The position numbers and the translations under genes were made by a program. DNA of 64,000 nucleotides, taken from positions 166,194 to 230,193 of the IMG/VR virus record IMGVR_UViG_3300040801_001810, one strand, 5' to 3'. Position 1 is the first letter of the stretch, and each line of letters opens with the position of its first letter. Shown here piece by piece: positions 34,244 to 52,086 of this stretch. The notes below the pieces were generated by a model, which worked only from the letters and a program-made list of their open reading frames with translations, did no database searches and was not told the origin of the DNA. The DNA comes from a virus (lineage: Duplodnaviria; Heunggongvirae; Uroviricota; Caudoviricetes).

Positions 34244-35434
34244 ATGTCTACAAAATTCAAGGTAACTCTTGGAATTATTATTGTTATTTTGATAACAATT
34301 ATCGCACTTGGAAACAACATTGTCAGTTGGAATGATGCTGGTCAAACTCTTGTAACTCAGTATCCAAATGGTAAAATAAAGGTTGTTCTCACACCTGGAC
34401 CATACTGGCAAGCATTTGGTCAAGAATTTGAGTACAATCATTATGCAACAATCGGATTTGGTACACAAAAAGGTGATCGTTCAGCGGATATCGCTGCTGT
34501 ACCAGTAATCTTTAATGATGCTTCGACAGCAGGAATATCACTTCTTGCTCGTGTTCAAATGCCTCAAGATGAAGTGAAGATGAGTAAAATTAAACAACAG
34601 TTTGTAAATGGATACACTCATTTCCTTACAGCAGGTGCAGTACCAGTAATTGAGAACATTGTTAAGATTTCAGCTAACCTTAGATCTTCACAAGAAGCTT
34701 TCCAGACAATGTCTCAGTTCAAGACAGATATTGAAACTCAACTTCGAGACGGTCAATATGTTACCAAAGCAGTAGAAAAATGGGTAACTAAAGCTACTGG
34801 TGATAGTGAACGAGTAAAGCTTACAGAGATCGTATATGCAGAAGATGGAGTAACCCCATTGACTACTACACATGATCTTAAGGAAATGGGATGTAAAGTA
34901 ACTATTCAAGTTCTTGAAGTTCCAGATTTTGATCAACGCACAAAAGACATGATTGCTCAACGTAAAGAACAGTCATTGCAAACAGAAGTTCGTAAGCAAG
35001 AAGCAATTCGTGCTGAACAAGAAGCCATCACAGCAGAAGCATCAGGTAAAGCTGAAGCAATGAAGGTTAAGTGGGAACAAGAAAAAGAGAAAGCCAAAGA
35101 AGTTACAATGGCTGAAAAACGTAAGGAAGTAGCTAAGCTTGATATGGAATCAGCAGCATTTAAAAAGAAGGCTGACATTCTTGAAGGTGAAGGTATTGCC
35201 GCAAAGAAGAAACTTATCATGCAAGCTGATGGTGCTCTTGAGCTTAAGCTTAAAGCAGCTGTTGAGATTAATAAGAATTATGCAACAGCAATTCAGAATT
35301 TCCAAGGAAATCTTGTGCCTCAGTATATTAGCGGAAACGCAGATGGAAAATCATCTTCAGCAATGGATCTAATTGAGATGCTGAAGATTAAGACAGCAAA
35401 AGATCTTTCTCTTGATATGTCTACAAAGAAATAA
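34244..35434 (+). CDS. SPFH/band-7 (HflK/flotillin-like) membrane protein with C-terminal coiled coil
   Basis: N-terminal TM helix, ~180-aa globular region, then EA-rich heptad region (AEQEAITAEASGKAEAMKVKWEQEKEKAKE...) typical of SPFH family architecture. Confidence 0.45.
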   Translation: MSTKFKVTLGIIIVILITIIALGNNIVSWNDAGQTLVTQYPNGKIKVVLTPGPYWQAFGQEFEYNHYATIGFGTQKGDRSADIAAVPVIFNDASTAGISLLARVQMPQDEVKMSKIKQQFVNGYTHFLTAGAVPVIENIVKISANLRSSQEAFQTMSQFKTDIETQLRDGQYVTKAVEKWVTKATGDSERVKLTEIVYAEDGVTPLTTTHDLKEMGCKVTIQVLEVPDFDQRTKDMIAQRKEQSLQTEVRKQEAIRAEQEAITAEASGKAEAMKVKWEQEKEKAKEVTMAEKRKEVAKLDMESAAFKKKADILEGEGIAAKKKLIMQADGALELKLKAAVEINKNYATAIQNFQGNLVPQYISGNADGKSSSAMDLIEMLKIKTAKDLSLDMSTKK

Positions 35435-38092: not shown

Positions 38093-38323
38093 ATGATGAA
38101 ATTACTACTCAGAGAACGACCAAATAAACCAGTTAATCCAAAAGCTTATATTAACCATAGTTTTACATCTGATCAGAAGAAAATTATTTGGAACTGGTTT
38201 TATGAAAACGAAAGAAAACGAGCAGTAATATCCAAGGATACAATCATAAATTTGTTTCAACGGGCTAAGACTAAGAAAAAACCACAAATTGGAGCAAGTA
38301 TTATACTTCCAGGAAAAGAATGA
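38093..38323 (+). CDS. hypothetical basic protein
   Basis: 76-aa ORF. Confidence 0.35.
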   Translation: MMKLLLRERPNKPVNPKAYINHSFTSDQKKIIWNWFYENERKRAVISKDTIINLFQRAKTKKKPQIGASIILPGKE

Positions 38324-38473
38324 TGTTAGTAATATGTGATAATTATAAAACATGCAAAATGCGTCATGAATGTGGTGGAGCTAAACCACATGAAAGATGT
38401 AGTGAGTGTGGTAATTGCCCATTTGGGAAAGGCGTAGAATGTAATGAATACATTATATCAAAAGATAAAAAAT
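38321..38473 (+). CDS. small Cys-rich protein (~50 aa)
   Basis: MMLVICDNYKTCKMRHECGGAKPHERCSECGNCPFGKGVECNEY. Below track cutoff. Overlaps the next gene start. Confidence 0.3.
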
Positions 38474-38893
38474 GATATCATACGAGCAATGAAAGAACAC
38501 GCATTATTAGTAAGAAATGTTCTAAGATGCCTAGATGCTGAAATTCAACTGAAAGCTAAGGAAACTAAACAAGCTATCAATGATGATATGGTGATACAAG
38601 CAATAAAGCGAAATATCAAACAACGAAAAGCATCTATTATTGAGTTTGATAAGGGAAATAGAAATGATTTATCTAAGAAAGAAGAACTAGAAATAGTAGT
38701 ACTTCAACATTACTTGCCAGAAATGATGAATAAGGAAACAATTACATTAGCTGTAGAAGAAGCTATTAAGAATGTTGGGGCCATTACTTCTAAAGATATG
38801 GGCAAAGTAATGGGCGCATTAAAAGATCTTAAATCAAAAGCAGACATGAAATTAGTAAATCAAATAGTAAAAGAAAAACTTCAGTCAAACTAA
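38444..38893 (+). CDS. GatB/YqeY domain protein
   Basis: LYQKIKNDIIRAMKEHALLVRNVLRCLDAEIQ...SKKEELEIVVLQHYLPEMMNKETITLAVEEAIKNVGAITSKDMGKVMGALKDLKSKADMKLVNQIVKEKL matches the YqeY family pattern (..YLP..ms.eEl...v.e.i...ga....mGkvMg.....g.adg..v...v...L). Confidence 0.55.
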   Translation: MNTLYQKIKNDIIRAMKEHALLVRNVLRCLDAEIQLKAKETKQAINDDMVIQAIKRNIKQRKASIIEFDKGNRNDLSKKEELEIVVLQHYLPEMMNKETITLAVEEAIKNVGAITSKDMGKVMGALKDLKSKADMKLVNQIVKEKLQSN

Positions 38894-38909: not shown

Positions 38910-39758
38910 ATGGCAAAAGTTGGATTGATCATTATCGATGGTCAAAAGGATTTCTGTGAAGGAGGCAAACTGGCTGTTACAGGAGGTAACGAATGTCTCG
39001 AAAAAGTATCAGATATGATTGATAGAATTGGAGATAAACTCTACAATATCGACCTAACATTTGATGCGCATCACCAACATCATATTGCTCATAGTTGTAT
39101 GTGGGTAGATAATGATGGCAATAATCCACCACCATTTACACTTATGACCCCTGCTGATGTCATTGGCACAGGAGCACAATATAGAGCAGCTAATATTGGA
39201 TACATGGCTACTCAGGAGAAATACATCCAAGAACTTGCGAAACGTAATGACTCAAGAGAAGCAATGGGACTTCTTCGTATTGAGCATTGTATTTGGCCTG
39301 AACATTGTCTTATTGGTACCGATGGTATGTCTCTTAATGAAAGGCTTCTTCAGTCAATCATGGCATGGGAGCTTAAAAAGAAGAGACCAACAAATAAGAC
39401 AACTAAAGGATCATTTATGTTTGCTGAGCATTTCTCAGTATTCAAGGCAGAGGTGCCAAATGATCTAGATCCAGCAACAAAGACAAATATGCATCTGATT
39501 AATAACTTGTCCAGTCTTGACATGTTGGCATGGGCTGGTCTTGCAAAAGATTATTGTCTCATGAATAGTTTCATTGATTTCATTCTCGAACTGAGTGGTG
39601 GAGATCAAAAGATTGCTGAAGATATTTCAAAGAAAATGGTATTTATCGAAGACGGTACCGCTTCTGTTGGTGCAGTACCTGCGCTTGCTGACAAGTTTGA
39701 TGAATTCCTTACTAAGTGGGGAGTTGAACGAGTTAAAGCAGAGGACTTTCTAAAATAA
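38910..39758 (+). CDS. pncA: nicotinamidase (isochorismatase-family, PncA-like)
   Basis: N-terminal GLIIIDGQKDFCEGGKLAVTGG equals the PncA signature (hhhhD.QNDFc.gG.LaV.g.). Later HCIWPEHCLIGTDG supplies the catalytic Cys region. RBS ctgaggaggataagATG. Confidence 0.65.
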   Translation: MAKVGLIIIDGQKDFCEGGKLAVTGGNECLEKVSDMIDRIGDKLYNIDLTFDAHHQHHIAHSCMWVDNDGNNPPPFTLMTPADVIGTGAQYRAANIGYMATQEKYIQELAKRNDSREAMGLLRIEHCIWPEHCLIGTDGMSLNERLLQSIMAWELKKKRPTNKTTKGSFMFAEHFSVFKAEVPNDLDPATKTNMHLINNLSSLDMLAWAGLAKDYCLMNSFIDFILELSGGDQKIAEDISKKMVFIEDGTASVGAVPALADKFDEFLTKWGVERVKAEDFLK

Positions 39759-39776
39759 TACGGAGAGGGAGGGGAA

Positions 39777-39815
39777 TAAAGGAGGGTAGTAGGATGACCC
39801 TCCTCCCCACTTTTA
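39777..39815 (+). terminator. hairpin GGAGGGT-AGTAGGATG-ACCCTCC followed by TCCCCACTTTTATT (terminator-like) overlapping the kinase track start
   Basis: Read directly. Suggests the kinase initiates at the ATG at 39818. Confidence 0.35.
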
Positions 39816-41488
39816 TTATGAAGATTACATTGAAAAATAAGAATCAATTCTTTACGCTAAAGCAAACAGATTATGTTGCAGGTGGTGGTGAAGGAAAAGT
39901 ATATCGTAGAGGATCAGTAGCATTTAAGATATACCATGATCCAAAGAAAATGATTCCTCTAGATAAGATAAATGCTCTTTGTAAACTTACACCAAAGAAT
40001 GTGCTAGCTCCTAGAGATATTTGTTTAAATAATCGTGATATACCAGTTGGTTTCACAATGGATTATGTAAGCGATACCGTATTTCTATGTTGGCTATTTA
40101 ATAGAGGATGGAGAATACAAAATAATGTAACTCCAGATATGATTACCAAACTCATCAATAAGATGAGAGAAACAACCATTACTCTTCATAATGAAAAATG
40201 TGTAGTAGGTGATTATAATGAAATGCAATTCCTCACAAATAAATCGTTTTCTGATGTTTACTTCTGTGATACTGATTCTTATCAAATTGGTAGGTTTGGC
40301 TGTACTGCTATTATGGATACTGTTAGAGACAGGATTCTTCCATTTGGTCAATTTAACGAAGGTAGCGATTGGTTTGCATTCGCAGTAGTTACTAGCCAAC
40401 TATTTACAGGCGTTCATCCTTATAAGGGAAGACACCCTGATTATACAAAAAGAGAAGTAAATCAACTTAAGCTTATGGATGAGAATATATCTATCTTCAA
40501 TCCATTAGTTACAATGCCTAAGCAAGCGCAGCCTCTCAATTCAATTCCACATAATATTAGAGATTGGTATGAAGAAGTACTTGAGCGTAAGTGGAGAGAC
40601 ATACCTCCTAAAATAGGAACTGGTGTACAATTTATTGTTATGCCAACAAGAGTATTATCATCTACAGATACATTTGAAGTAAAAGAAGCATTATCAATAC
40701 CAGAATTAATTAGAAAAATATGCCTAGTTAATGGCAAGCTATATATAGTTGGAGAAAATACACTCTATTTAAACGATAGAGCAATAACTAGTTTACCATT
40801 ATCAAGTGAACATTTTGTAGTTAAGTGTGAAGGAGATTTTAACCATATTAGATGTGAACAATATGGTAAAAATTTACATTTTTATCACTTACCAAATCCA
40901 AATCAAGAGATTTATTCGTGTTTAGCACATCATGTTACAACATATGATGGTGAATTATATATTATAAGAGATGGAAGTGCAATAAAATGCACTTTTAAGA
41001 AAATGTTCGGGAAAGTTATGTGTGATGAACAAAAAGTAGGAGATGTATTTACTCCTACTGTTAAAGCTTTTCCTGGTGTATTTGTTCAAGATATATTAGG
41101 TATACCATGGATTGGTGTACCAAATAACAATAGCTTTAATAATATACAGCTAAGTAAATTAATATATCATCGTATTATTGATGCTAAATATGAAGGCGGT
41201 ATATGCTTACTAATAACTGAGCATAAAGGTAAAACATATAGAACTATTGTATCTAATGATGGAGTCATTTCAGAAGAATGTGATAGTACAGAAAGAGCCA
41301 ACTTTACTACAGTTGGTTCAGTAGCCGCTATTATCATTGGAGACGAAGAACTAAGACTTAGAGTTGATGTTGGTACTAAGGTTATTCAAACTCCTCCTTT
41401 TGATAGTTCAATGACAATGTGTAGTGATGGAGCTAGAGTATTAGTTATTAATGGTAAGAAACTTTTACATATTTCAACAAAGCATTAA
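39794..41488 (+). CDS. eukaryotic-like Ser/Thr protein kinase (likely start 39818)
   Basis: Gly-rich loop AGGGEGKVYRRGS followed by VAFKIY (VAxK lysine). FCDTDSYQIG in the DFG-equivalent position. ~270-aa C-terminal extension of unknown function. Confidence 0.55.
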   Translation: MTLLPTFIMKITLKNKNQFFTLKQTDYVAGGGEGKVYRRGSVAFKIYHDPKKMIPLDKINALCKLTPKNVLAPRDICLNNRDIPVGFTMDYVSDTVFLCWLFNRGWRIQNNVTPDMITKLINKMRETTITLHNEKCVVGDYNEMQFLTNKSFSDVYFCDTDSYQIGRFGCTAIMDTVRDRILPFGQFNEGSDWFAFAVVTSQLFTGVHPYKGRHPDYTKREVNQLKLMDENISIFNPLVTMPKQAQPLNSIPHNIRDWYEEVLERKWRDIPPKIGTGVQFIVMPTRVLSSTDTFEVKEALSIPELIRKICLVNGKLYIVGENTLYLNDRAITSLPLSSEHFVVKCEGDFNHIRCEQYGKNLHFYHLPNPNQEIYSCLAHHVTTYDGELYIIRDGSAIKCTFKKMFGKVMCDEQKVGDVFTPTVKAFPGVFVQDILGIPWIGVPNNNSFNNIQLSKLIYHRIIDAKYEGGICLLITEHKGKTYRTIVSNDGVISEECDSTERANFTTVGSVAAIIIGDEELRLRVDVGTKVIQTPPFDSSMTMCSDGARVLVINGKKLLHISTKH

Positions 41489-41491
41489 ATT

Positions 41492-41683
41492 ATGTTAGAT
41501 AAAATAATATTAACATCTGTATTAACAGCAATAATATGTATATCAGGTGGAGCAATTGGTGGTTCGATGGATAGAAGCGGAATCGACATTCCTGAATGGT
41601 GGTCATTAACTACAATGTATGGATTTTTAATAAGTCTAGTAACATTTATCGTGTGTATATATATTAACATTTGGATTAACTAA
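41492..41683 (+). CDS. small membrane protein
   Basis: 63 aa with two hydrophobic helices. Confidence 0.4.
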   Translation: MLDKIILTSVLTAIICISGGAIGGSMDRSGIDIPEWWSLTTMYGFLISLVTFIVCIYINIWIN

Positions 41684-41685
41684 TT

Positions 41686-42855
41686 ATGATTATCAAAAGC
41701 AAACTAGATATTGACCTTTATAAATTTAAAATGTTATATTTTCTATGGGCAACAGATCAATTAAATATTCCAGTAGTATATAGATTCTTTAATAGAACTC
41801 CTATTAAATTAGAACAATATGTATCTATGTCTGAAGTTCAAATGGAACTATCTCATTTTAGAAATAATTTTTATTCTGCTAAAGAACTTGATTATTTATG
41901 TACTTTATTTGAACCAGCATTTGTAGAATTTCTACATGCACAAAAAATTAGTAATGCAAAAGTAATACCAAAAACACATGGTTTTGGATTTGATATTGAA
42001 GGAACATATAGTAATGTTATACTTCATGAAACAGCTTTATTGTCTATAATTAATGAACTCTATTGTAAAAGAATACTAGAAGTAATTGATCCAGAAATTG
42101 AAGAACACTATAGAAAAACAAATTTAGCTAACTCTATAGATATGATTAAGAATACTAATATTCGCTTTGTTGAATTTGGTACAAGAAGAAGATTTAGTGC
42201 AGATTGGCAAGCTGAAGTATTAGGTCGTATTAGAAATCATATACCAGACAATTTAATTGGTACTAGTAATGTATATTTAGCTATGATGCAAGATGTTACT
42301 CCTATTGGAACAATTGCTCATGAAATGCATTCATTTTATGCTGCAACACAACCAACAGAAATACATAGCCAAAGTACTTTAGTAAAAGAATATACACGTA
42401 TATTTCCAGAAACATTCTTTCTAACAGATACATTCGGAACACAAGATTTTCTTGATAATTGTTGTGAAGAAGATGAACATCTATATGGATTAAGACAAGA
42501 TAGTGGATCCACAACAGCATGGATGAATGCACTTGAAGCAAAATTTCCAAGTTCATTACCAAGACCAAAAATAATGTTTAGTGATGGATTAACAGCTCCT
42601 AAAATAATTTCATTATATGATAATTATAGTTCAAGATGGCAATGTAATTTTGGTTGGGGAACTAATCTTACCAATAATGGAATAATTAAACCATTAAGTA
42701 TTGTAATGAAACTATGGAAAGCTGATAAGAAATATTGTATCAAACTAAGTGATAACCCAAATAAAGCTGTTGGACATCCTAAAGAAGTTGAAAAATATAA
42801 ATGGATATTTAACTATAATAAAAATATTACACATAAAACAAAGGTGGTTTATTAA
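41686..42855 (+). CDS. pncB: nicotinate phosphoribosyltransferase
   Basis: DLYKFKM (E. coli DAYKLHM), VEFGTRRRFS (E. coli MDFGTRRRFS), GTIAHEM (GTQAHEW), LRQDSGS (LRHDSGD), KLSDNPNKAVGHPKEV (KLSDSPGKTICHDKAF) line up along the whole length. Confidence 0.85.
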   Translation: MIIKSKLDIDLYKFKMLYFLWATDQLNIPVVYRFFNRTPIKLEQYVSMSEVQMELSHFRNNFYSAKELDYLCTLFEPAFVEFLHAQKISNAKVIPKTHGFGFDIEGTYSNVILHETALLSIINELYCKRILEVIDPEIEEHYRKTNLANSIDMIKNTNIRFVEFGTRRRFSADWQAEVLGRIRNHIPDNLIGTSNVYLAMMQDVTPIGTIAHEMHSFYAATQPTEIHSQSTLVKEYTRIFPETFFLTDTFGTQDFLDNCCEEDEHLYGLRQDSGSTTAWMNALEAKFPSSLPRPKIMFSDGLTAPKIISLYDNYSSRWQCNFGWGTNLTNNGIIKPLSIVMKLWKADKKYCIKLSDNPNKAVGHPKEVEKYKWIFNYNKNITHKTKVVY

Positions 42856-43103
42856 TGCCTAAGTATAAAATTACTGCTTCAGGAAAAGCTGTAGAAAATG
42901 CAGCAAAAGAAGTAGGAGATATGTTCAAAGAACTATTTAAAGATCTTCCACTACAATTAGAAGAAGTTGGTATTTCTCTTACAATTAATACTGAAAAAGA
43001 ATTTTCAGAAGAAGATATAACAACATTTACTTCTATTCTTGAAAAAGAAGCATTGGGACTTAAAGATCTAATTGAAACTAAAGTTACTGTGGAGAAATTA
43101 TGA
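42855..43103 (+). CDS. hypothetical protein between pncB and nadE
   Basis: 82-aa ORF with ATGA overlaps on both sides. Confidence 0.45.
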   Translation: MPKYKITASGKAVENAAKEVGDMFKELFKDLPLQLEEVGISLTINTEKEFSEEDITTFTSILEKEALGLKDLIETKVTVEKL

Positions 43104-43993
43104 ATTTACCAGTAGATCCTTACTTTGTAGAAAAAAATATTAAGCGTCAAACATGCAGTTATATAAGAAAACATAATATTAAATCATTGGTATTAGGTAT
43201 ATCTGGTGGACTTGATAGTGCTGTTGTTGCTTCTTTAATGGCTGGGGTTGCAGCAGAAGAATCAATACCACTTATTGGTATATCTCTTCCAAGCGATTCT
43301 AACCAAGATGAAGAAATAGCTAGAGCAGATGCAGTAGGGAAAGAATATTGTACTAAGTTTACTACATATGAAATTGATAATGATTTTGTAGAAGTATCAG
43401 ATAGTATTTACTTAATACTATCAAAAATTTTAGATGGAGAATTAACCGATTGGGAACAAAAGATTTTAGCTGGTAATATTAAAGCTAGATTAAGAATGAT
43501 TCTACTATTTGCTACAGCTGGTGCTACCAAAGGTATGGTACTATCTACTGATAATAAAACAGAAGAAATGCTTGGATTCTGGACACTTCATGGAGATGTA
43601 GGTAATTTTGGTCCTATACAAAATCTATGGAAATCAGAAGTATATGAACTTGCAAGATCTATATATGATCAAAGAGGAGTACAAGCATTAAAGGATTGTA
43701 TAGATGCTACTCCTACAGATGGACTAGGAATCACAAGTAGCGATCTAGATCAAATAGGTGTAGATAGTTATGATGAAGCTGATCGAAGAATACAAAACTA
43801 TATTAAACTAGCTACTAATCTTTTTGACGTTAAATCATTCTTTGATCAAGCAAAAGCTGTACAACAGATATGCGATTTACCTATTAATGATCCAGTTATT
43901 AATCGTATGGTTAATAGTGAATTTAAACGCAAAGATCCATATAACATACCAAGAGATCAACTATTTATTAAACCTAATCAAAGAATAGAATAG
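43100..43993 (+). CDS. nadE: NH3-dependent NAD+ synthetase
   Basis: KSLVLGISGGLDSAV (PP-loop SGGxDS; E. coli SLVLGISGGQDS), NIKARLRMILLFA (NEKARERM), VLSTDNKTEEMLGFWTLHGDVGNFGPIQ ([27 protein letters not shown]). Confidence 0.85.
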   Translation: MNLPVDPYFVEKNIKRQTCSYIRKHNIKSLVLGISGGLDSAVVASLMAGVAAEESIPLIGISLPSDSNQDEEIARADAVGKEYCTKFTTYEIDNDFVEVSDSIYLILSKILDGELTDWEQKILAGNIKARLRMILLFATAGATKGMVLSTDNKTEEMLGFWTLHGDVGNFGPIQNLWKSEVYELARSIYDQRGVQALKDCIDATPTDGLGITSSDLDQIGVDSYDEADRRIQNYIKLATNLFDVKSFFDQAKAVQQICDLPINDPVINRMVNSEFKRKDPYNIPRDQLFIKPNQRIE

Positions 43994-44021: not shown

Positions 44022-44097
44022 TGGGGTATAGTTCAGTGGCTAGAACGCCAGGTTTTGAGCCTGGATGTCGGGGGTTCAAATCCCTCTACCCCTTCCA
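44022..44097 (+). tRNA. tRNA-Gln (anticodon TTG), CCA encoded
   Basis: TGGGGTA-TA-GTTC-AGTGGCTA-GAAC-G-CCAGG-TTTTGAG-CCTGG-ATGTC-GGGGG-TTCAAAT-CCCTC-TACCCCT-T-CCA. U1:U72 mismatch at the top of the acceptor stem. Confidence 0.75.
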
Positions 44098-44103
44098 TTT
44101 ATT

Positions 44104-44676
44104 ATGAAAACAAAACTACTTACAAATATAAAAGAAGTAAAAGATGCTGCTCTTGATACAGTAGGATTAAAATCTACTAAAGAAGCTACATCTGATTGGC
44201 TTTATCAAATACTTTATGCTGAACATTCTCCTATCAGAAATATTATTATTAAAAGTACCTGGGAGAAAATTAAATATTGGGTAAGCGTTCACCTAACGAG
44301 ACACAAAATCGGAATAGAGCATTTTGTAAAGACACAGAGATCAGATAGAACTGGAGTAGATAGAGATAATCTACCTCAAGGAGCTGAAGTTCAGCACAGT
44401 ATAGTAGCTAATGCTCAAGCTATAATTAATATATCTCGTAAAAGAATGTGTAAACAAGCTTCTAAAGAAACAAGATTAGCTTGGCAAGAATTTTTAAAAA
44501 GTTTTTATTATGAATTACCAGAATTAAACTTTGTATGTGTTCCAGAATGTATGTACAGAGGATTTTGTCCTGAAATCAAATGTTGTGGTTATGTAAATAG
44601 TAATGATTACAAAGAACTCAGACAAGAATATATAGATAAATGTAAGGAGCTTCAATGCAAGCAAGACCATTTATAA
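44104..44676 (+). CDS. divergent ThyX-like (flavin-dependent thymidylate-synthase-like) protein, uncertain
   Basis: AEHSPIRNIIIKST...VHLTRHKIGIEHFVKTQRSDR loosely follows the ThyX pattern EH..f.F......SR...HQLVRHR..S..QeSQRY, but RHK replaces RHR and the SQRY tyrosine is absent. Confidence 0.3.
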   Translation: MKTKLLTNIKEVKDAALDTVGLKSTKEATSDWLYQILYAEHSPIRNIIIKSTWEKIKYWVSVHLTRHKIGIEHFVKTQRSDRTGVDRDNLPQGAEVQHSIVANAQAIINISRKRMCKQASKETRLAWQEFLKSFYYELPELNFVCVPECMYRGFCPEIKCCGYVNSNDYKELRQEYIDKCKELQCKQDHL

Positions 44677-44966
44677 AAGTAAACAATGGAAATATATTTA
44701 GAGATGTAGATGGAACAACTTATGTTAAAACTCCTAAATCAGCTACATCATCAGAAGGAATTTTTACTAATTGTGTAGTCTTAATAACTAATTCTAAAGA
44801 TCTCTCAAGAGGAGATCTAGTTAAAAAAGTAAAAGATGTCTACTGCGAAGTTATCGATGCAGCAGAAATAATTCAGCTCCAAGGAGATGAATCTTTGCAA
44901 GAAGCAAATAAAAGTATAATTCGAGGCGATAATGAGACAAGTTCGATTATCGAGGATAGAGACTAA
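44655..44966 (+). CDS. hypothetical protein
   Basis: 103-aa ORF. Confidence 0.4.
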   Translation: MQARPFIKVNNGNIFRDVDGTTYVKTPKSATSSEGIFTNCVVLITNSKDLSRGDLVKKVKDVYCEVIDAAEIIQLQGDESLQEANKSIIRGDNETSSIIEDRD

Positions 44967-45333
44967 TCCTAAACACGGAACATTTGGTGTATTGGTTGTA
45001 GATGGAGAAGCATTTTGTGTAACTCTTGAACCTTATTCTAGAAATAACGTAACATCTATATCAAGTATTAATGCTGGACAATACCTATGTACTGTAGTAG
45101 ATTCTCCACGATGGGGACACACATATACAGTTACTAATGTAGAAGGAAGAGATCTTATTAGAATACATGCTGGAAATATAGATGATAATACAGAAGGATG
45201 TATTATTATAGCTCAGTATTTCGGTAAGCTGCGTGGAAATAGAGCTGTACTTAACTCAGGAAATACACATAAAGCATTCATGAAATTAATGAATGATGAG
45301 CCATTTATATTAACAATTACTGAAAATTATTAA
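44932..45333 (+). CDS. hypothetical protein (possible His/Cys hydrolase-like small domain)
   Basis: 133 aa. IRIHAGNIDDNTEGCIII has a HxG...GC arrangement. Family not identified. Confidence 0.4.
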   Translation: MRQVRLSRIETNPKHGTFGVLVVDGEAFCVTLEPYSRNNVTSISSINAGQYLCTVVDSPRWGHTYTVTNVEGRDLIRIHAGNIDDNTEGCIIIAQYFGKLRGNRAVLNSGNTHKAFMKLMNDEPFILTITENY

Positions 45334-45348
45334 CTATACTATACAAAC

Positions 45349-45423
45349 CTGCGTGTAGCTCAGCTTGGTCAGAGTTCTGGTCTTGGAGTCCAGATGTCGG
45401 GGGTTCAAATCCCTCTGCGCAGA
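45349..45423 (+). tRNA. tRNA-Pro (anticodon TGG)
   Basis: CTGCGTG-TA-GCTC-AGCTTGGTCA-GAGT-T-CTGGT-CTTGGAG-TCCAG-ATGTC-GGGGG-TTCAAAT-CCCTC-TGCGCAG-A. Confidence 0.7.
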
Positions 45424-45427
45424 AATA

Positions 45428-45502
45428 CGGGATATAACTCAGTCTGGTCAGAGTGCTCGGTTTGGGGCCGAGTTGCCGCTGGTTCGAATCCAGCTATCCC
45501 GA
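45428..45502 (+). tRNA. second tRNA with anticodon TGG (Pro), different sequence
   Basis: CGGGATA-TA-ACTC-AGTCTGGTCA-GAGT-G-CTCGG-TTTGGGG-CCGAG-TTGCC-GCTGG-TTCGAAT-CCAGC-TATCCCG-A. Confidence 0.7.
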
Positions 45503-45508
45503 TAATAA

Positions 45509-45540
45509 GGAGATCACTTAAGTGTGGTCTCCTTTTTTAT
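45509..45540 (+). terminator. rho-independent terminator after the tRNA pair
   Basis: GGAGATCAC-TTAAGT-GTGGTCTCC followed by TTTTTTAT. Confidence 0.55.
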
Positions 45541-45551
45541 TTGAGGATTCC

Positions 45552-46853
45552 ATGAAAAAGAAATTAGTATTAGAAAAATATAATCATAATCCTTGTGGAG
45601 AAATAATGGAACCTAATAAAGAAAGTACTCTATATTCGTTTGCTATATATAATGGAAAAGATTTTACTGTAAGAAGCACAACAAATGATATAACATTAGC
45701 AAATTCTTTTGGCGGAACAAGAATAGAAAAAGAAAAAAGAGATAATAATGTTAATTACATGGACCTAATAGAACCAGTAATTCAAGAAGTAATTAGACAA
45801 CATATTAAGAATACACTTAGTAAATATGGAAAAGATTTAATAATAAAATATGGAACAGATAATCCTCTTGGAAAAGAAATAGGACAAGATAATGAAACAT
45901 TAGATAATCAAATAAATGATTTTTTAGATGGTCAATGGAATATTAAAAAATGGATTGTTATGAGCAGAAAATTTTGGCTTGAACCAAAATCAACTGAAGT
46001 ATCCTTTGAGCAAGCTTTACGTCAATTACGTATATCAAGAATACCAATGCTAATGCCAATAGCAGATATATATACTCATCATATAGAAGATAAAGATACT
46101 TCTTTTTATAGAAGACGAGGATATGCATCAGAATCACAAATAATTAATATTATACGAGACGGTCATCAAAATGATGATTATACATTAAGATTCATTAGAT
46201 ATGTTCATCCTATTACTCAACGATTAGTATTAACTGCATACAGTTTAGATGAATCAATACAAAATATAGATATATATAATGGAAAACCTATTAGTAGATC
46301 TATTAGAGAATTAATAGATTCAAATAAATTAGTAGCTTATTATGATTGGTATAAAGGAACAACAATTCGCCAAGGAGGACTATTTAGACTTCAATTGGTA
46401 CCAACAAGATCAGCAAAAGTTCCAACTAGAAAAAAGCTACAGAAAAAACGTGATGCTAAAATGTATCAAAGTGATATGCGTATTGTTGAAGATATAGTTG
46501 AAAAAGCTACCACTAGATTTTTAAAGACACGAATTCCAAAAATAGATAATAGTTTATTTAAGTTTAATTTTACTTATAACTATAGAACATATAGTTGCGC
46601 ATATAATAAAACTGTAACAACTATAAGTGAAAATCTTGCAATCTTTTTAAGTAAACTTCAAACTGAAAGAGGATATAAAGGACTATTATCAGAAATAAAA
46701 AAAGACATATTGTCTAATAATTTTATGAAAAGACAAAACATATTTCTAAAACATAAAGATCCAGATGTTAAATTTATGGGTGAATTTTTAGAATCAATCA
46801 AACCAAAAGGAGCAAGAAATGAATGTACCAAATCTGCCAGTAGCATCAAATGA
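45552..46853 (+). CDS. hypothetical protein (434 aa)
   Basis: ATG at 45552 (MKKKLVLEKY) after the terminator, in frame with track ORF 45522..46853. Confidence 0.5.
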   Translation: MKKKLVLEKYNHNPCGEIMEPNKESTLYSFAIYNGKDFTVRSTTNDITLANSFGGTRIEKEKRDNNVNYMDLIEPVIQEVIRQHIKNTLSKYGKDLIIKYGTDNPLGKEIGQDNETLDNQINDFLDGQWNIKKWIVMSRKFWLEPKSTEVSFEQALRQLRISRIPMLMPIADIYTHHIEDKDTSFYRRRGYASESQIINIIRDGHQNDDYTLRFIRYVHPITQRLVLTAYSLDESIQNIDIYNGKPISRSIRELIDSNKLVAYYDWYKGTTIRQGGLFRLQLVPTRSAKVPTRKKLQKKRDAKMYQSDMRIVEDIVEKATTRFLKTRIPKIDNSLFKFNFTYNYRTYSCAYNKTVTTISENLAIFLSKLQTERGYKGLLSEIKKDILSNNFMKRQNIFLKHKDPDVKFMGEFLESIKPKGARNECTKSASSIK

Positions 46854-47517
46854 ACAAATGAATAGAGAAGGAAATGCTCTTGTAGTACAAAGTGTTCAGC
46901 AACAACTTGGAATGAGTTCCGATGAAATTGCTAATGCTCGAGTAGCAGCGGTAGAAAATCATTTGCTTAAACTCCAAGATAGTATTTCAGACGAAATTTC
47001 AGGAATTGATTCATTAATAAAGGAAAAGAAAAAAGATCTTCATTTCAAAGATGATGAATGGAAATCAAAAGCAAAAGATGAATTTGAAGACAAATTTACA
47101 AAAGAACTAACAAAAGTATCTTTTGGAACAAAATTGGCTATTACTGTTAACTCATATAAAGTTACAAAAAAGGATAGCTCTACTGATCATGATCAAATCG
47201 AGCTTATTGCTTATCTAGCTAATATTGATGCCAAAAGTAGAGGATATGGTTCTGATGGAGTTAATATTGGAGCTAGCAAAGTAAAAATTCCAGCTACTGA
47301 TAAGAAAATTATTATTAAGCTTACTAAAGAAATTGAACCTTTGATTAGTAAAAAAGAAGAACTTCAACAAAAGCTTCTTAAAATTAGCGGAAAGCTAGCT
47401 AACCTTGATAGAGAAGAACGACAAGCTAAAGCATTGCTAGTTGCTTCAAAGGTTAACTCCTATGAAGGAGGAGCAGAATTTATGGAAGTAATCACTGGAA
47501 ATATGCCAGAGATTTAA
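46819..47517 (+). CDS. hypothetical coiled-coil protein
   Basis: 232-aa ORF. Confidence 0.45.
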   Translation: MNVPNLPVASNEQMNREGNALVVQSVQQQLGMSSDEIANARVAAVENHLLKLQDSISDEISGIDSLIKEKKKDLHFKDDEWKSKAKDEFEDKFTKELTKVSFGTKLAITVNSYKVTKKDSSTDHDQIELIAYLANIDAKSRGYGSDGVNIGASKVKIPATDKKIIIKLTKEIEPLISKKEELQQKLLKISGKLANLDREERQAKALLVASKVNSYEGGAEFMEVITGNMPEI

Positions 47518-47535
47518 TATTATAAAATCTAATAA

Positions 47536-47612
47536 GTACACTTCGTCTAATGCTCGGAAGGACGTCTAAGCACTTAAGCTCTACTTAGATATGTTGGTTC
47601 GAATCCAACAGT
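47536..47612 (+). pseudogene. degenerate tRNA-like element (good T-arm GTTGG-TTCGAAT-CCAAC and acceptor 3' strand, but imperfect acceptor 5' strand and 13-nt loops on the D- and anticodon-like arms)
   Basis: Read directly: GTACACT-TC-CGTC-(13)-GACG-T-CTAAG-(CACTTAAGCTCTA)-CTTAG-ATAT-GTTGG-TTCGAAT-CCAAC-AGTGGTC-T. Only 5/7 acceptor pairs. Confidence 0.3.
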
Positions 47613-47649
47613 GGTCTTATTAGTATAAATATATAATTAAGGACAAGAA

Positions 47650-47958
47650 ATGAAAAATAAAGGATTTACTTTAATTGAAGTCATAGTAGTAGCTATAATT
47701 ATATTAGTATTGGTATCAGTAGCTATTCCTATATTTCAAGGATATAAACAACTAGATGACACCATTACAATTGTTAATGGTAGAATCCAAAGTACTTCAA
47801 AAGAAGAAGTCATTGATAATACTGCAAAGTTTCTACATGATATTAAGAGCACTAAGAAACAGCTTAAACAAAAGCTGGATTCACTTGATGCAATTGAAAA
47901 CTTAGTAGCACCAACAGTAATAGAAACAGTATTTGTTAAGGATGATTGGGCAAGATGA
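47650..47958 (+). CDS. type IV pilin/pseudopilin-like protein (prepilin-type N-terminal domain)
   Basis: MKNKGFTLIEVIVVAIIILVLVSVAIPIF is a textbook class-III prepilin leader (G|FTLIE) followed by the hydrophobic alpha1 helix. Confidence 0.55.
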   Translation: MKNKGFTLIEVIVVAIIILVLVSVAIPIFQGYKQLDDTITIVNGRIQSTSKEEVIDNTAKFLHDIKSTKKQLKQKLDSLDAIENLVAPTVIETVFVKDDWAR

Positions 47959-48227
47959 AGAATAGATTAGAATTAGAAAGTTTTATAGAAATTGAATTTA
48001 AACTTTCTCCGACACAATATGTAGTTCAGCAAAATGGAAAAGGCATAGATATCTATGTTTATATAGCTATTAATAATACTCTTGTTCGAGTACGATTAAA
48101 TTCTCCTTATATGAATCATCTTACAGAACAAAGTGTTGGTTTAGCTATCAGTGGTGCTCTTGAAAAAATCAACTATGACTATAACAATGTTCAACAACCT
48201 GAAAATAATGTTGACATTTATCATTAA
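47946..48227 (+). CDS. hypothetical protein
   Basis: 93-aa ORF overlapping the pilin-like gene's end. Confidence 0.4.
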   Translation: MGKMKNRLELESFIEIEFKLSPTQYVVQQNGKGIDIYVYIAINNTLVRVRLNSPYMNHLTEQSVGLAISGALEKINYDYNNVQQPENNVDIYH

Positions 48228-48249
48228 ATAGACTATATTATATACACAT

Positions 48250-48326
48250 GCCGTTGTAACTCAGTTGGTCAGAGTAGCTGATTTGTAATCAGCCTGTCGG
48301 AGGTTCGACTCCTCTCAACGGCTCCA
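48250..48326 (+). tRNA. tRNA-Thr (anticodon TGT), CCA encoded
   Basis: GCCGTTG-TA-ACTC-AGTTGGTCA-GAGT-A-GCTGA-TTTGTAA-TCAGC-CTGTC-GGAGG-TTCGACT-CCTCT-CAACGGC-T-CCA. Confidence 0.8.
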
Positions 48327-48437
48327 TAAATTAAGGATTAACAATGTTCACATTAACTTACACATGTAAATGGTATAGAGTAGTCAAGAGATTATATCTC
48401 CTGGGGTGAACTTGTATTATCTAGTAACGTATACATA

Positions 48438-48466
48438 GGCAACCCCAAAAAGGTTGCCTTTTTTAT
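48438..48466 (+). terminator. rho-independent terminator
   Basis: GGCAACC-CCAAAAA-GGTTGCC followed by TTTTTTAT. Then TTGACA ... TATTAT promoter-like boxes before the 48507 gene. Confidence 0.55.
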
Positions 48467-48506
48467 TGCTCTTTGACATTATTAACAGACTAAGAACATA
48501 TTATAT

Positions 48507-49322
48507 ATGAAAAATAAGATTAAAGATATACTCACTATCTTAGAAAAAAAGCATGAAGTACAGATACTTTATGCTTGTGAATCAGGTAGTAGAGCATGGG
48601 GATTTGATTCAAAAGATAGTGATTGGGATATACGTTTTGTATATTTAAAAAGACCAAAAAATTACCTAACTGTATTCCCAAACGAACAATTGCATATAGA
48701 TCATAATAATAGTGAAGTATGTAAGAAATTTCTTGATTATGATTTAGATTTTGTCGGTTGGGATGTTAAAAAAGTATTATATCAGTTTAGTAAGGGAAAT
48801 CCAGATATGATTTCCTGGTTCTTCTCTCCAATAGTGTATAAATGTAATGATAATTTTCTTGGAACACTAAGAGTGCTTGGTAGTGAATTTTTTAAGAAAA
48901 AAGCAGCCTATTATCATTATATGCATATGGCTCAGAAAAATTACAATCAATACATAGCTAATCCTGAGACTAATAATATAAGAATTAAAAAGTACTTATA
49001 TGTTATACGCCCAATATTAGCGTGTATGTGGATTGAAACTTATGGTACTGAGCCACCAATGATAGTAGAAAATATTTATAATGATAGAGTTATTAATAAA
49101 TCATTATGTGATATGATGGTTTATATTCCTATAATTGAGTTAATTGCTGCTAAGAAAGCAGGAATTGAATTAGGCGAAGGCCCAAGAAGACCAATGTTAG
49201 ATGGATTTTGTGAAGGAATGATGAAGCATTATAAGACAATAGCTGATATAACTATTGTTAGTGAACCAGATTATAATAAACTTGATGACCTATTTAAACA
49301 TATTGTATCATTATACAACTAA
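48507..49322 (+). CDS. RlaP-type (pfam10127-like) nucleotidyltransferase
   Basis: LYACESGSRAWGFDSKDSDWDIRFVY matches the pol-beta-superfamily NTase signature (GS...G......SDxD) of the RlaP family associated with RNA repair/ligase operons. Confidence 0.5.
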   Translation: MKNKIKDILTILEKKHEVQILYACESGSRAWGFDSKDSDWDIRFVYLKRPKNYLTVFPNEQLHIDHNNSEVCKKFLDYDLDFVGWDVKKVLYQFSKGNPDMISWFFSPIVYKCNDNFLGTLRVLGSEFFKKKAAYYHYMHMAQKNYNQYIANPETNNIRIKKYLYVIRPILACMWIETYGTEPPMIVENIYNDRVINKSLCDMMVYIPIIELIAAKKAGIELGEGPRRPMLDGFCEGMMKHYKTIADITIVSEPDYNKLDDLFKHIVSLYN

Positions 49323-49332
49323 GGAGAAGAAC

Positions 49333-49779
49333 ATGCAGATGCCACTTTATTTTCATGTTAGAGGAGAAACAAATCTAGTAATTGATCAAGAGAAAAAGGA
49401 AATTGTTGATGTTGAAGTATCCCCAACAATTACTTTTTGTGTAGATAAATTTAACGACGAAACATTAACTGTTGGATATGCCGTTGTTCACGGAAATGAT
49501 CAATTCAATAAGAAAATTGGAAGAAACATAGCTAATGGGAGAATGAATAGTCTTCCTTATCTCAAAGCTTCCGATAATACACGAATTCATGTTGATGTTA
49601 AGAGACAACTTCCTGCTATTATTCATAGGGCAGCATGGATACTCAAGATGCAAGGCGAAATAAAGGCAATTATATCAAGTAATGTAAAGAATTCAAAAGT
49701 GAGATCATATACAGAAATTAAACAACATATTCCTACTGATACTGAAGTAAGTAATATGATTATGCATGACGACGTTTAA
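49333..49779 (+). CDS. hypothetical protein
   Basis: ATG 49333 after ctaaggagaagaacATG, in frame with track ORF 49255..49779. Confidence 0.45.
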   Translation: MQMPLYFHVRGETNLVIDQEKKEIVDVEVSPTITFCVDKFNDETLTVGYAVVHGNDQFNKKIGRNIANGRMNSLPYLKASDNTRIHVDVKRQLPAIIHRAAWILKMQGEIKAIISSNVKNSKVRSYTEIKQHIPTDTEVSNMIMHDDV

Positions 49780-49780
49780 T

Positions 49781-49866
49781 GGGCTAGAGGCAGATACGGT
49801 TAGCTGCGGCGGACTGTAAATCCGTTCCCTCTGGGTGTGTAGGTTCGAATCCTACCTAGCCCACCA
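49781..49866 (+). tRNA. tRNA-Tyr (anticodon GTA), type II with long variable arm, CCA encoded
   Basis: GGGCTAG-AG-GCAG-ATACGGTTAG-CTGC-G-GCGGA-CTGTAAA-TCCGT-TCCCTCTGGGTGT-GTAGG-TTCGAAT-CCTAC-CTAGCCC-A-CCA. Confidence 0.8.
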
Positions 49867-50060
49867 ATTTTAAGCATACTGAGAATAGGACTCAAGTGCG
49901 ACCACTAGTGAGGATAAAGGTAAATCCTATTTGAACTTTATCCAATAAAACTGCCCCGCTTGTCCTGTACCTATCTAGTGATCGTGGGATGTTATAATAA
50001 CAATTGTATAACATGAATCAGGACAGTATGCTTAATTAATTTTAACTACTGGAGGAAACA

Positions 50061-50231
50061 ATGAAGGTAGACAGACAAATGAGCGCATTAGAAAGACGCA
50101 CTAATGATCTTGAAATGTGGAAATTAAAGCTCAATGAAGAAAAAGATTCAGAAAAAAAAGAACAAATCAAGAAAAAGATAAAGATCTGTGAAACAGATAT
50201 AAATGGTTTAAAAAAGAACCTCAAAATTTAA
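50061..50231 (+). CDS. small Lys-rich coiled-coil protein (56 aa)
   Basis: ctactggaggaaacaATG. Below track cutoff. The minus-strand track ORF 50042..50224 is its antisense artefact. Confidence 0.4.
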   Translation: MKVDRQMSALERRTNDLEMWKLKLNEEKDSEKKEQIKKKIKICETDINGLKKNLKI

Positions 50232-50309
50232 GGCTCCATAGCCAAGTGGAATTTAAGGCTCTCGGTTGCAACCCGAGGATCGTGGGTTCGAATCCCTCTG
50301 GGGCCTCCA
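50232..50309 (+). tRNA. tRNA-Cys (anticodon GCA), CCA encoded
   Basis: GGCTCCA-TA-GCC-AAGTGGAATTTAA-GGC-T-CTCGG-TTGCAAC-CCGAG-...-TTCGAAT-...-TGGGGCC-T-CCA. Long D-loop. Confidence 0.7.
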
Positions 50310-50328
50310 CTTTAAAAGGATATAAACA

Positions 50329-50634
50329 GTGAAGGTTGGAACATTAGTTAAGTTAAAATGCGAATGCCTTGGAAATCCACCTGGAACTGTAGGAGTTTGC
50401 TATGAAGAATATGATCTAGGCGGAGATCATGGATCATCATTTATATTTGAAAATGGAAATTACGATGGATTTTCAATTGAAGACCAAAGATTATTTCTAG
50501 AAAGGATAGGACACTATCCATTAACATATGTATTTACTAATGTAATGAAACTAAGTGAAGATTATAATAACAAAGTCTTTGAAGGAGCATTACATATATT
50601 TGGAAGAGAAGGCGATAAGCCATGTGGTTCATAG
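50329..50634 (+). CDS. hypothetical protein
   Basis: 101-aa ORF with GTG start in the track. Confidence 0.4.
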   Translation: MKVGTLVKLKCECLGNPPGTVGVCYEEYDLGGDHGSSFIFENGNYDGFSIEDQRLFLERIGHYPLTYVFTNVMKLSEDYNNKVFEGALHIFGREGDKPCGS

Positions 50635-51236: not shown

Positions 51237-51493
51237 TAGCTATTATTATTAAACGAGATTTTGAATTTTCAAGAACTAATAAACTTAAGGAAGTAGCAGA
51301 GTTTCTTCAAGTAATATTATTAAAATTAAATGAACTAAAAGATTTATCTGATAGAAAAGTTAGAGAAGTAATTTCAAAAGAAATTGAAACTCTAAAAAAG
51401 CAAAGTAAATCAAACATGTCCATTTACGATAAATCAACTATCAACTTTAATATAGCTATTCTTAGAAAGTATTTATCTAAAAGATTGAAGTAA
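51233..51493 (+). CDS. hypothetical protein
   Basis: 86-aa ORF. Confidence 0.4.
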   Translation: MIAIIIKRDFEFSRTNKLKEVAEFLQVILLKLNELKDLSDRKVREVISKEIETLKKQSKSNMSIYDKSTINFNIAILRKYLSKRLK

Positions 51494-51499
51494 CACTTT

Positions 51500-51580: not shown

Positions 51581-51594
51581 TAAAGGATAAACTA

Positions 51595-52020: not shown

Positions 52021-52086
52021 TTCAGTAGGTAGAATAACTCCCTTTTAAGGAGTAGGTCGCAGGTTCGATCCCTGCTGGACCCACCA
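52011..52086 (+). tRNA. tRNA-Lys (anticodon TTT), CCA encoded
   Basis: GGGTCCA-TA-ATTC-AGTAGGTA-GAAT-A-ACTCC-CTTTTAA-GGAGT-AGGTC-GCAGG-TTCGATC-CCTGC-TGGACCC-A-CCA. Confidence 0.8.

Follow-up and report, generated by a model that had tools for sequence, protein, structure and literature searches.

The stretch considered here is a 64-kb window (64,000 nucleotides, the whole of the DNA analysed; positions 166,194 to 230,193 of the IMG/VR record IMGVR_UViG_3300040801_001810, a Caudoviricetes virus), and our subject is an island of plus-strand genes within it, in which enzymes of the Preiss-Handler route to nicotinamide adenine dinucleotide (NAD+) are interspersed with genes for a Ser/Thr kinase, a PP2C-type phosphatase and a vWA-like protein. 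Depletion of NAD+ is among the commonest effector strategies of bacterial immunity. A first-pass annotation had recognised a nicotinamidase (PncA-like), a nicotinate phosphoribosyltransferase (PncB) and an NH3-dependent NAD+ synthetase (NadE) in the island, together with a NadD-like adenylyltransferase further downstream, and had proposed them as a counter-defence against NAD+-depleting immunity. The motifs and coordinates that it quoted are all present exactly as given, and four enzyme families that would jointly be able, in principle, to turn nicotinamide into NAD+ do occur in this one phage.

The nicotinamidase assignment could not be confirmed by the expected Pfam family, as the PF00857 score of 13.2 bits (E=0.096) falls short of the cutoff, 27; it is nevertheless upheld by a match to NCBIfam PRK11609 (E=1e-12; 48 bits against a cutoff of 174, with the N-terminal 60 residues alone aligned), by the predicted fold and by the active site. 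The protein matches nicotinamidases of the Protein Data Bank (PDB) by sequence (3pl1, E=1e-7), and a Foldseek search with its AlphaFold model (predicted local distance difference test score, pLDDT, 96.7) returned nicotinamidases or pyrazinamidases at every one of PDB ranks 1-26 (best E=4e-15), with target-normalised TM-scores of 0.53-0.81 that exceed 0.7 for all but one, at 14-20% identity to the solved enzymes. The catalytic residues D10, K166 and C216 align with those of solved PncA and are kept in 59/60, 60/60 and 60/60 homologues linked to the cassette described below, and the metal ligands D52, H54 and H132 (the last within WPEHC) are kept in 59-60 of the same 60. An Asp-His-His metal site sets nicotinamidases apart within the isochorismatase-like superfamily, as seen in the structures of PncA and Pnc1. 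Relative to the canonical PncA of about 190 residues, the protein is extended at its C terminus and carries an insertion of some 65 residues (about residues 63-127). We accept it as a divergent member of the nicotinamidase family whose catalytic site is predicted to be intact and whose activity is presumed from alignment and model. As this long form slips past Pfam annotation, its numbers are probably underestimated in surveys of NAD genes in viruses.

PncB passes the thresholds of both Pfam families, PF04095 (E=4e-37, 128.7 bits) and PF17767 (E=1e-16, 61.8 bits), and nicotinate phosphoribosyltransferases (NAPRTases) make up its six best sequence matches in the PDB (1ybe, E=2.8e-45). Its phospho-histidine motif GTxAHE places H212 upon the corresponding histidine of 1ybe, and H212 is kept in 25/25 cassette-linked homologues; by these comparisons the protein is clearly a NAPRTase homologue, if a divergent one. 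We considered whether it might be a Nampt and ruled this out, given that the PDB matches are to NAPRTases only and that the phospho-histidine aligns. NadE passes PF02540 (E=1.6e-39, 135.9 bits) and TIGR00552 (125.9 bits against a cutoff of 63.65), carries SGGxDS at residues 35-40 (kept in 28-29 of 29 linked homologues), and is a single-domain protein devoid of a glutaminase (CN-hydrolase) domain, which marks it as the ammonia-type enzyme. The NadD-like protein likewise passes PF01467 (E=1e-9, 38.9 bits against a cutoff of 21), and the HxGH and ISSTxxR motifs of its family are present as PPHLGH and IRSTTIR; its top match in the PDB is 3h05, which is uncharacterised. The Pfam families that the first-pass annotation had named for checking are found in all three proteins. 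Of 50,697 GenBank phage records, 14 have a homologue of the window's PncB, 45 one of its NadE and 4 one of its PncA-like protein, and the co-location here is not a matter of chance.

The first-pass annotation had noted that the cluster is interleaved with a kinase/phosphatase/vWA module and had taken this as a sign of an anti-defence island. The interleaving is real, but the three genes are more than island neighbours, as they form with the nicotinamidase a conserved cassette. Scans of IMG/VR with the single PncA-like and PncB proteins gave no match, and an alignment-based scan with the kinase succeeded; 80 IMG/VR loci were fetched by the kinase alignment only, with 10-kb flanks (many from contigs of 200-550 kb; IMG/VR labels are used as given), and their open reading frames (ORFs) were searched with iterated profiles seeded from the window. 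The 80 loci reduce to 68 distinct ones (kinases less than 90% identical), 65 of which are assessable for upstream content. Unbiased clustering of the ORFs in the 68 distinct loci yielded PP2C (66), vWA-like (63) and PncA-like (61) families as the sole near-universal neighbours of the kinase. Homologues of the vWA-like protein are present in 61/65 and of PP2C in 64/65 of the assessable loci, and in 59/65 all three partners adjoin the kinase, predominantly on the same strand in the order PncA-like, vWA-like, PP2C, kinase-beta-propeller. Next in recurrence on the plus strand come a Nudix/NrtR family, PncB, NadE, the NadD-like family and a few minor families. Within 10 kb, PncB is found in 28, NadE in 27 and a NadD-like gene in 17 of the 65; at least one of the three lies in or beside the cassette in 38/65 and all three in 11/65. 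PncB and NadE are inserted within the cassette in five loci (L035, L042, L083, L086, L087), and L020 is contiguous throughout (PncB-PncA-vWA-PP2C-kinase-NadE-NadD). The linked NadE occurs in two forms, an ammonia-type one of about 250-300 residues, as in the window, and one of about 550-730 residues that is presumably glutamine-dependent (e.g. L063, L074, L077). These loci show the nicotinamidase to be an integral member of a four-gene cassette, and the module beside it is not incidental.

In each of the four core proteins, the catalytic or MIDAS-type (metal-ion-dependent adhesion site) residues stay invariant among sequences that are 25-35% identical. The kinase belongs to a family of 353 homologues, many of which carry PF00069; its AlphaFold2 model (pLDDT 88.5) combines a domain like the eukaryotic protein kinases with a C-terminal beta-propeller, the two matching ULK1, IRAK4 and CDK kinases and BamB/WD40 propellers, respectively, in Foldseek. 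Residues G31, G32, D140, N142 and D159 are invariant in 68/68 homologues, and K45 is kept in 66/68. The phosphatase matches PF13672 (PP2C_2) below its cutoff (E=0.004), and its homologue in L013 has a precomputed PF13672 match; D19, D39-G40, D121-G122, D216-G217 and D270 are invariant in 67/67 homologues and D269 is kept in 66/67. In the vWA-like protein, the motif D39-x-S41-x-S43...T110...D146 is invariant in 65/65 kinase-adjacent homologues (S41 being S or T), and a C-terminal serine cluster, SQSFSSKS (residues 228-235), retains S228, S230, S232 and S235 in at least 93% of the 65; this cluster is a candidate phospho-acceptor for the neighbouring kinase and phosphatase. Alignment profiles of the vWA-like and PP2C proteins found no match among PDB sequences. 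A 627-residue protein encoded upstream of the PncA-like gene in L004 was considered as a substitute for the kinase and shows no similarity to it.

For the kinase, the vWA-like and the PncA-like protein, pairwise similarities are correlated across 106 loci (rho 0.48-0.71); this argues that the three are inherited as a unit. We reject mere synteny of related phages as the main explanation of the kinase-nicotinamidase linkage, because no other flanking family is conserved, because the order is held across 25-45% identity despite variable inserts, because rearranged versions (L026, L069) remain linked, and because the operon recurs in several bacterial phyla.

The last of these points comes from a scan of bacteria at one genome per species, which returned 185 relatives of the kinase, all in metagenome-assembled genomes (MAGs; labels are used as given). 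We analysed 80 of the 185, from Armatimonadota, Acidobacteriota, Myxococcota, Spirochaetota and other phyla; 49 loci were assessable, and in these PncA-like occurs in 42, vWA-like in 43, PP2C in 35, PncB in 14, NadE in 5 and NadD in 2. Some MAG contigs are mis-binned phages (L094, for instance, is identical to L014); several loci lie on contigs of 1-6 Mb, among them a 6.18-Mb Capsulimonadaceae chromosome in which a PncA-vWA-PP2C-kinase-PncB operon has ordinary bacterial genes on its flanks, those for an extracytoplasmic function sigma factor, a flavin reductase, MgtE and a peptidase of the BlaR1 type. As the cassette occurs in bacteria, its basic role must be broader than counter-defence. Linkage of NadE and NadD-like genes to it is commoner in phages than in bacteria, which fits a route made self-sufficient by phages. 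A Nudix family is the commonest neighbour after the core partners (35/80 viral and 30/80 MAG loci), and 9/9 of the cassette-flanking Nudix proteins tested are of the NrtR type (PF00293 plus the winged helix PF21906). NrtR is an ADP-ribose-responsive repressor of NAD genes, which ADP-ribose frees from DNA (PMC2330246).

The layout of the island in the window is given in Table 1. From the YqeY-like gene to NadE the gaps are 16, 35, 3, 2, -1 and -4 nt on one strand, i.e. an operon-like packing, and the block is bounded by strong terminator-like hairpins at 35461 and 45507. The overlap of the 82-residue ORF with PncB and NadE is a predicted translational coupling; the ORF is missing between these genes in a relative (L002/L012). 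The closest relative has the order vWA-like, PP2C, kinase, 149-residue ORF, PncB, NadE. YqeY adjoins PncA also in the relatives L010 and L011, and as it occurs in 7 loci only it is not a general member of the cassette. NadD-family genes lie 2-5 kb from the PncA-like gene in the relatives L007 and L010. The 80-residue membrane protein overlapping the NadD-like gene also matches TIGR01528 (PnuC) below its cutoff (E=1.3e-4), phrog_2421 (E=1e-9) and the PnuC-like phrog_1880 (E=9e-4), and the other loci fetched have no counterpart of it. It might be a transporter of the PnuC type, half-size (dimeric) and coupled to the adenylyltransferase, and its membership of the system is uncertain.

Table 1. 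Genes of the island and associated genes in the window.
Feature	Position	Strand	Basis or remark
vWA-like protein, 252 aa	36163..36921	+	MIDAS-type motif; cassette member
PP2C-type Ser/Thr phosphatase, 280 aa	37191..38033	+	PF13672 below cutoff, invariant Asp residues; cassette member
YqeY/GatB-C-like protein	38444..38893 (JGI gene call from 38489)	+	PF09424 E=3.5e-37
Long-form nicotinamidase (PncA-like), 282 aa	38910..39758	+	Fold, active site, PRK11609
Ser/Thr kinase (~1-270) + beta-propeller (~294-562), 564 aa	39794..41488	+	Cassette anchor
Predicted membrane protein, 63 aa	41492..41683	+	Hydrophobic sequence; not conserved in other loci
PncB, nicotinate phosphoribosyltransferase, 389 aa	41686..42855	+	Pfam, NCBIfam and PDB matches
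82-aa ORF	42855..43103	+	Start and stop overlap PncB and NadE; no family match
NadE, NH3-dependent NAD+ synthetase, 297 aa	43100..43993	+	PF02540, TIGR00552
NadD-like adenylyltransferase, 163 aa	54285..54776	+	PF01467, HxGH + ISSTxxR; 10.3 kb downstream of NadE
PnuC/YgjV-like three-helix membrane protein, 80 aa	54754..54996	+	PF10688 E=1e-6; overlaps end of NadD-like gene

The first-pass annotation had suggested that a phage route of PncA, PncB, NadD and NadE would be a distinct solution to the rebuilding of NAD+. The enzyme set does differ from those of the NAD+ reconstitution pathways NARP1 (Adps and Namat), NARP2 (Nampt and Nmnat) and NARP3 (PnuC and NadR), for which restoration of NAD+ against NADase defences has been shown experimentally (Osterman et al. 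2024; PMC13464706), but it is not new, as phages with a Preiss-Handler pathway have already been reported. Li et al. 2024 (Microbiome, PMC11662467) describe 174 'NAD-jumbo phages' with salvage or Preiss-Handler genes, including a pncB-nadD-nadE cluster in, for example, Kuafu_71; phage pncA is noted there also, and a counter-defence against Sir2-mediated NAD+ depletion is proposed and called unverified. The source of the window resembles these phages in its genome of more than 200 kb with clustered PncB, NadD and NadE, in the pncA that some of them share and in the roles proposed, namely autonomous synthesis of NAD+ and counter-defence against its depletion, and differs from them in the position of NadD 10 kb away and in the long form of its nicotinamidase; kinase, PP2C, vWA and NrtR partners are not mentioned in the accessible portions of that paper. 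PncB and NadE are also annotated in the cultured jumbo phages Agrobacterium phage Atu_ph07 and Sinorhizobium phage Phosso and are adjacent in several uncultured huge phages, and pncA, pncB and nadE are listed as auxiliary genes of viruses of CPR (Candidate Phyla Radiation) and DPANN hosts (PMC12647753). In bacteria, the same four enzymes are clustered as nrtR-pncA-pncB-nadD-nadE in Clostridium acetobutylicum and as nrtR-nadD<>pncA-pncB-nadE in Pseudomonas (Rodionov 2008, PMC2330246), and relatives of our island share with these operons regulators of the NrtR family; the operons are devoid of vWA, PP2C and kinase genes, and the nicotinamidase of the window differs in being the long form.

Like NARP1-3, the island is predicted from its genes to restore NAD+ during infection, with breakdown products or precursors as the starting material; unlike them, its route would run via deamidated intermediates, with four steps and ammonia. 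Among the window ORFs tested, Adps, Namat and NadR had no match and there is no Nampt, PncB being of the NAPRTase type. Partial NARP3-like parts are present in the form of the 80-residue PnuC-like protein, the NadD-like protein and a distant minus-strand AAA_28-family P-loop kinase (2084-2707; PF13521, E=1.5e-12) that weakly matches NadR in its ribosylnicotinamide-kinase part (TIGR01526, E=9.5e-4); these three genes could constitute a nicotinamide-riboside branch. A phage salvage from nicotinamide has been validated biochemically for NadV-NatV of Vibrio phage KVP40 (Lee et al. 2017, as cited in PMC11662467 and PMC13282480); it too is phage-encoded and starts from nicotinamide, and it differs in having two enzymes, a path via nicotinamide mononucleotide (NMN), no deamidation and no signalling genes. 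The signalling genes have their nearest likeness in the TerY-P triad of a TerY-like vWA protein, a PP2C and a Ser/Thr kinase, a predicted phosphorylation switch, versions of which are reported as stand-alone anti-phage systems (PMC10542128, citing Anantharaman 2012 and Gao 2020 for the former and Gao 2020 for the latter). Going by that account, the same three components would stand in one operon in both, the vWA of the cassette being recognised by motif only, and genes of the Ter type adjoin the triad in our closest relative; the cassette kinase differs in ending in a beta-propeller in place of the zinc ribbon of the classical form or the OB fold of the Gao 2020 version, and the cassette triad in its constant coupling to a nicotinamidase and NAD genes. 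PADLOC models gave no match to the island proteins at E<=0.01, and we have not assigned the triad to any known defence system. In the open-access literature, no paper was found that links nicotinamidase, PncA or isochorismatase with vWA, PP2C or TerY. The four-enzyme phage route is already known, and the element that seems new is the cassette of nicotinamidase, kinase, PP2C and vWA-like protein, which is apparently undescribed.

From these observations it is reasonable to postulate the following course of events. The long-form nicotinamidase would deamidate nicotinamide to nicotinate; PncB would join nicotinate with phosphoribosyl pyrophosphate (PRPP) to give nicotinate mononucleotide (NaMN), with ATP used via the phospho-histidine; the NadD-like enzyme would adenylylate NaMN to nicotinate adenine dinucleotide (NaAD); and NadE would amidate NaAD to NAD+ with ammonia. 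Going by sequence, the two final reactions may run in either order, and the adenylyltransferase may prefer NaMN or NMN. We regard this enzymology, from nicotinamide through nicotinate, NaMN and NaAD to NAD+, as a well-founded inference from the enzyme families. More speculatively, the triad may act as a phosphorylation switch, with the propeller as a sensor or docking domain, in which the kinase would write and the PP2C erase phosphate on the serine cluster of the vWA-like protein or on the enzymes, so that salvage is gated or scaffolded. The net effect would be that NAD+ is rebuilt from nicotinamide in the infected cell, sustaining phage replication and blunting NADase immunity of the TIR, SIR2 or SEFIR type. 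Counter-defence by this route is plausible because NADases release nicotinamide and ADP-ribose, and ADP-ribose is the ligand of NrtR. On balance, and with moderate confidence, we read the region as one rearranged copy of a conserved jumbo-phage island for NAD+ salvage, with the triad as its putative switch, that would blunt NADase immunity. More tentatively, and with rather more doubt than conviction, we propose that long-form nicotinamidase, vWA-like protein, PP2C and kinase-beta-propeller make up an undescribed signal-regulated module of NAD+ homeostasis or conflict, common to jumbo phages and to Armatimonadota, Acidobacteriota, Myxococcota and other bacteria and often under NrtR, which phage PncB, NadE and NadD would extend into a self-sufficient, phosphorylation-gated rebuilding of NAD+, i.e. 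a fourth, regulated type of reconstitution.

Several points weigh against the reading of the region as a salvage island directed at immunity. Besides the failure of PF00857 for the nicotinamidase, PncB scores below the equivalog cutoffs of NCBIfam PRK05321 (E=1e-86, 291.4 against 379) and TIGR01514 (242.5 against 269.55), and the best NCBIfam matches of the NadD-like protein, to NadD/NMNAT models, are all below cutoff (PRK08887, 53.4 against 164 bits); the gene of the latter, moreover, lies 10 kb from the rest of the island in a tRNA and RNA-repair region. The vWA assignment is suggested by the motif only, as the protein has no Pfam or PDB profile match and its hhalign comparison with a Pfam-recognised vWA-TerF-like protein is not significant (E=0.029). 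Within the clade of this phage the cassette is in part scattered, no NrtR is encoded in the window, and no cultured phage was found to carry the cassette, the kinase occurring in GenBank in three uncultured huge phages only. A four-step route costs PRPP, ATP and ammonia and is slower than NARP1 or NARP2. Last, counter-defence cannot be the role of the bacterial cassette, the primary function of which may be NAD homeostasis or something else.

This last point bears directly on an alternative in which the island serves general metabolic augmentation, raising NAD+ for replication, repair or phage NAD consumers, or complementing hosts that are without nicotinamide or niacin salvage, with no specific link to immunity; we hold this to be unlikely, if by no means negligible. 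Besides the presence of the same cassette in bacterial chromosomes, it draws on the complementarity with host pathways and the many NAD-consuming phage enzymes described by Li et al. (PMC11662467), on a 2026 jumbo-phage review that frames NAD+ synthesis as resource supply, on the NadE of cyanophages and pelagiphages, which is read as an auxiliary metabolic gene, and on 9 viral loci with the gene for the NAD-dependent DNA ligase LigA close to the cassette. The ligase encoded in the window and its relatives, however, is ATP-dependent and not NAD-dependent, no NAD consumer was found within the 64 kb, and the coupling to an ADP-ribose-sensing regulator and a triad of signalling proteins suggests that the island responds to cleavage of NAD+ and is not a constitutive supply. 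In any case, augmentation and counter-defence are not mutually exclusive. The substrate of the first enzyme could also be other than we suppose, the PncA-like protein being a different cysteine amidohydrolase of the isochorismatase superfamily that acts on another amide, a protein or a nucleotide, so that the route would start from nicotinate. Its score below the Pfam threshold, its insertion and extension relative to characterised enzymes and its low identity to solved nicotinamidases lend themselves to such a view, which we nonetheless consider very improbable, since Asp-His-His plus Asp-Lys-Cys is the nicotinamidase signature and is invariant, the top 26 structural matches are nicotinamidases that rank above other superfamily members, and the gene recurs adjoining PncB and under NrtR.

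The linkage counts invite yet another interpretation, as the nicotinamidase is linked to the triad at about 90% against 43% for PncB, 42% for NadE and 26% for NadD. Nicotinamidase and TerY-P-like triad might then form, in bacteria or on phages, a system of defence or exclusion, to which PncB, NadE and NadD are optional additions; we judge this improbable, and give a similarly low standing to the mode of action it would entail, in which signal-triggered destruction of nicotinamide starves a rival's NARP1 or NARP2 (both of which need nicotinamide) or relieves product inhibition of NADase effectors by nicotinamide. The cassette in bacterial chromosomes, the stand-alone anti-phage triads cited above from PMC10542128 and the genes for TerC and the vWA-TerF-like protein that directly precede the triad in the closest relative all speak for such a system. 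It is, however, pure inference. No cassette protein has a PADLOC match, the kinase has a beta-propeller and not the zinc ribbon or OB fold of TerY-P, the insertion of PncB-NadE within the cassette and the control by NrtR fit productive salvage, and the lower counts for PncB, NadE and NadD may reflect genes outside the 10-kb flanks, as with NadD in the window.

Returning to the regulated salvage island that we favour, the phage pathways of NAD+ reconstitution that are so far demonstrated to counter NAD+ depletion number three, and the Preiss-Handler route of jumbo phages is known from annotation alone; if this route works, it would be a fourth, deamidated phage route that starts from the NADase product itself. 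The near-obligate coupling of nicotinamidase and triad, often with NrtR, in giant phages and bacteria suggests post-translational signal control of NAD salvage, of which we found no description for bacterial or viral NAD metabolism in the open-access literature. The cassette is a testable system, with defined genes, invariant catalytic residues that can be mutated and, in the vWA-like protein, a tail that is a candidate phospho-acceptor.

The 230,193-bp contig from which the window derives is of jumbo-phage size (>200 kb), and we accept such an origin on the basis that a protein identical to the PncA-like one is recorded from a JGI contig of 230,193 bp, that the nearest relatives lie on contigs of 92-229 kb (one, L014, a close relative, being an IMG/VR viral contig), that tRNAs and a tmRNA are present, and that window proteins match PHROG entries and phage proteins. 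The window has a G+C content of about 30-40%, long same-strand gene runs, 11 tRNA genes, a genuine tmRNA and many small ORFs that have no family assignment; proteins typical of phages include an endonuclease VII, an SPFH/band-7 protein (as in crAss-like and Vibrio phages), RlaP, a CCA-adding enzyme, a UDG-family protein and a DNA methylase. At the DNA level, the 5-kb region had two short NadE matches and no close relative among the 50,697 GenBank phage records. Rfam reported no riboswitch in the window, for NAD+ or otherwise, and a sigma-70 promoter scan gave no excess over shuffled sequence.

A number of further observations were made beside the island and its relatives. In the closest relative (L012 1-2895, L014 3307-4621), genes for a vWA-TerF-like protein, a TerD-like ORF and TerC stand directly upstream of the vWA-like/PP2C/kinase/PncB/NadE genes. 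In L013 (8548-13150 of a 508-kb contig, GCA_043956695.1), PP2C and kinase are followed by a methyltransferase, a 353-residue protein with an adenylyltransferase domain and a WGR-PARP protein, which ties the kinase family of the cassette to an NAD+-consuming enzyme (PARP). Between the PP2C and YqeY genes of the window lies a cysteine-rich ORF of 51 residues (38320-38475, plus strand; CDNYKTCKMRHECGG...CSECGNCPFGKGVEC), which could be a small zinc-ribbon protein (cf. the zinc ribbon fused in classical TerY-P kinases). The SPFH/band-7 protein (34244-35434, plus strand) is encoded about 0.7 kb upstream of the island, with a 120-residue ORF between, and has 30-34% identity to proteins of Bacteroides phages of the crAss-like group, Vibrio phages and the huge phage LR756500.

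Downstream of NadE, an array of 10 tRNA genes on the plus strand (44022-56496: Gln, Pro x2, Thr, Tyr, Cys, Trp, Lys, Val, Arg) encloses genes of the RNA-repair type, namely RlaP (48507-49322), a calcineurin-like phosphoesterase (50622-51236) and a CCA-adding enzyme with an HD domain (52370-53758), and the whole has the look of a region for counter-defence through translation and tRNA repair. Further viral loci, too, have Thg1-like genes and phosphoesterase homologues close to the cassette. A plus-strand ORF at 44065-44676 matches the C-terminal part only of ThyX (PF02511 positions 138-190), and its predicted start overlaps tRNA-Gln; the true start is probably further downstream, and the product may be a truncated or divergent ThyX. 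The tmRNA is full-length (61162-61531, plus strand; Rfam RF00023, 122 bits, E=4e-47), with the tag peptide GEETTEEFYPLAKAA according to ARAGORN. A tRNA-like element at 63688-63780 (plus strand), with an undetermined two-base anticodon, is reported by ARAGORN and not by Rfam.

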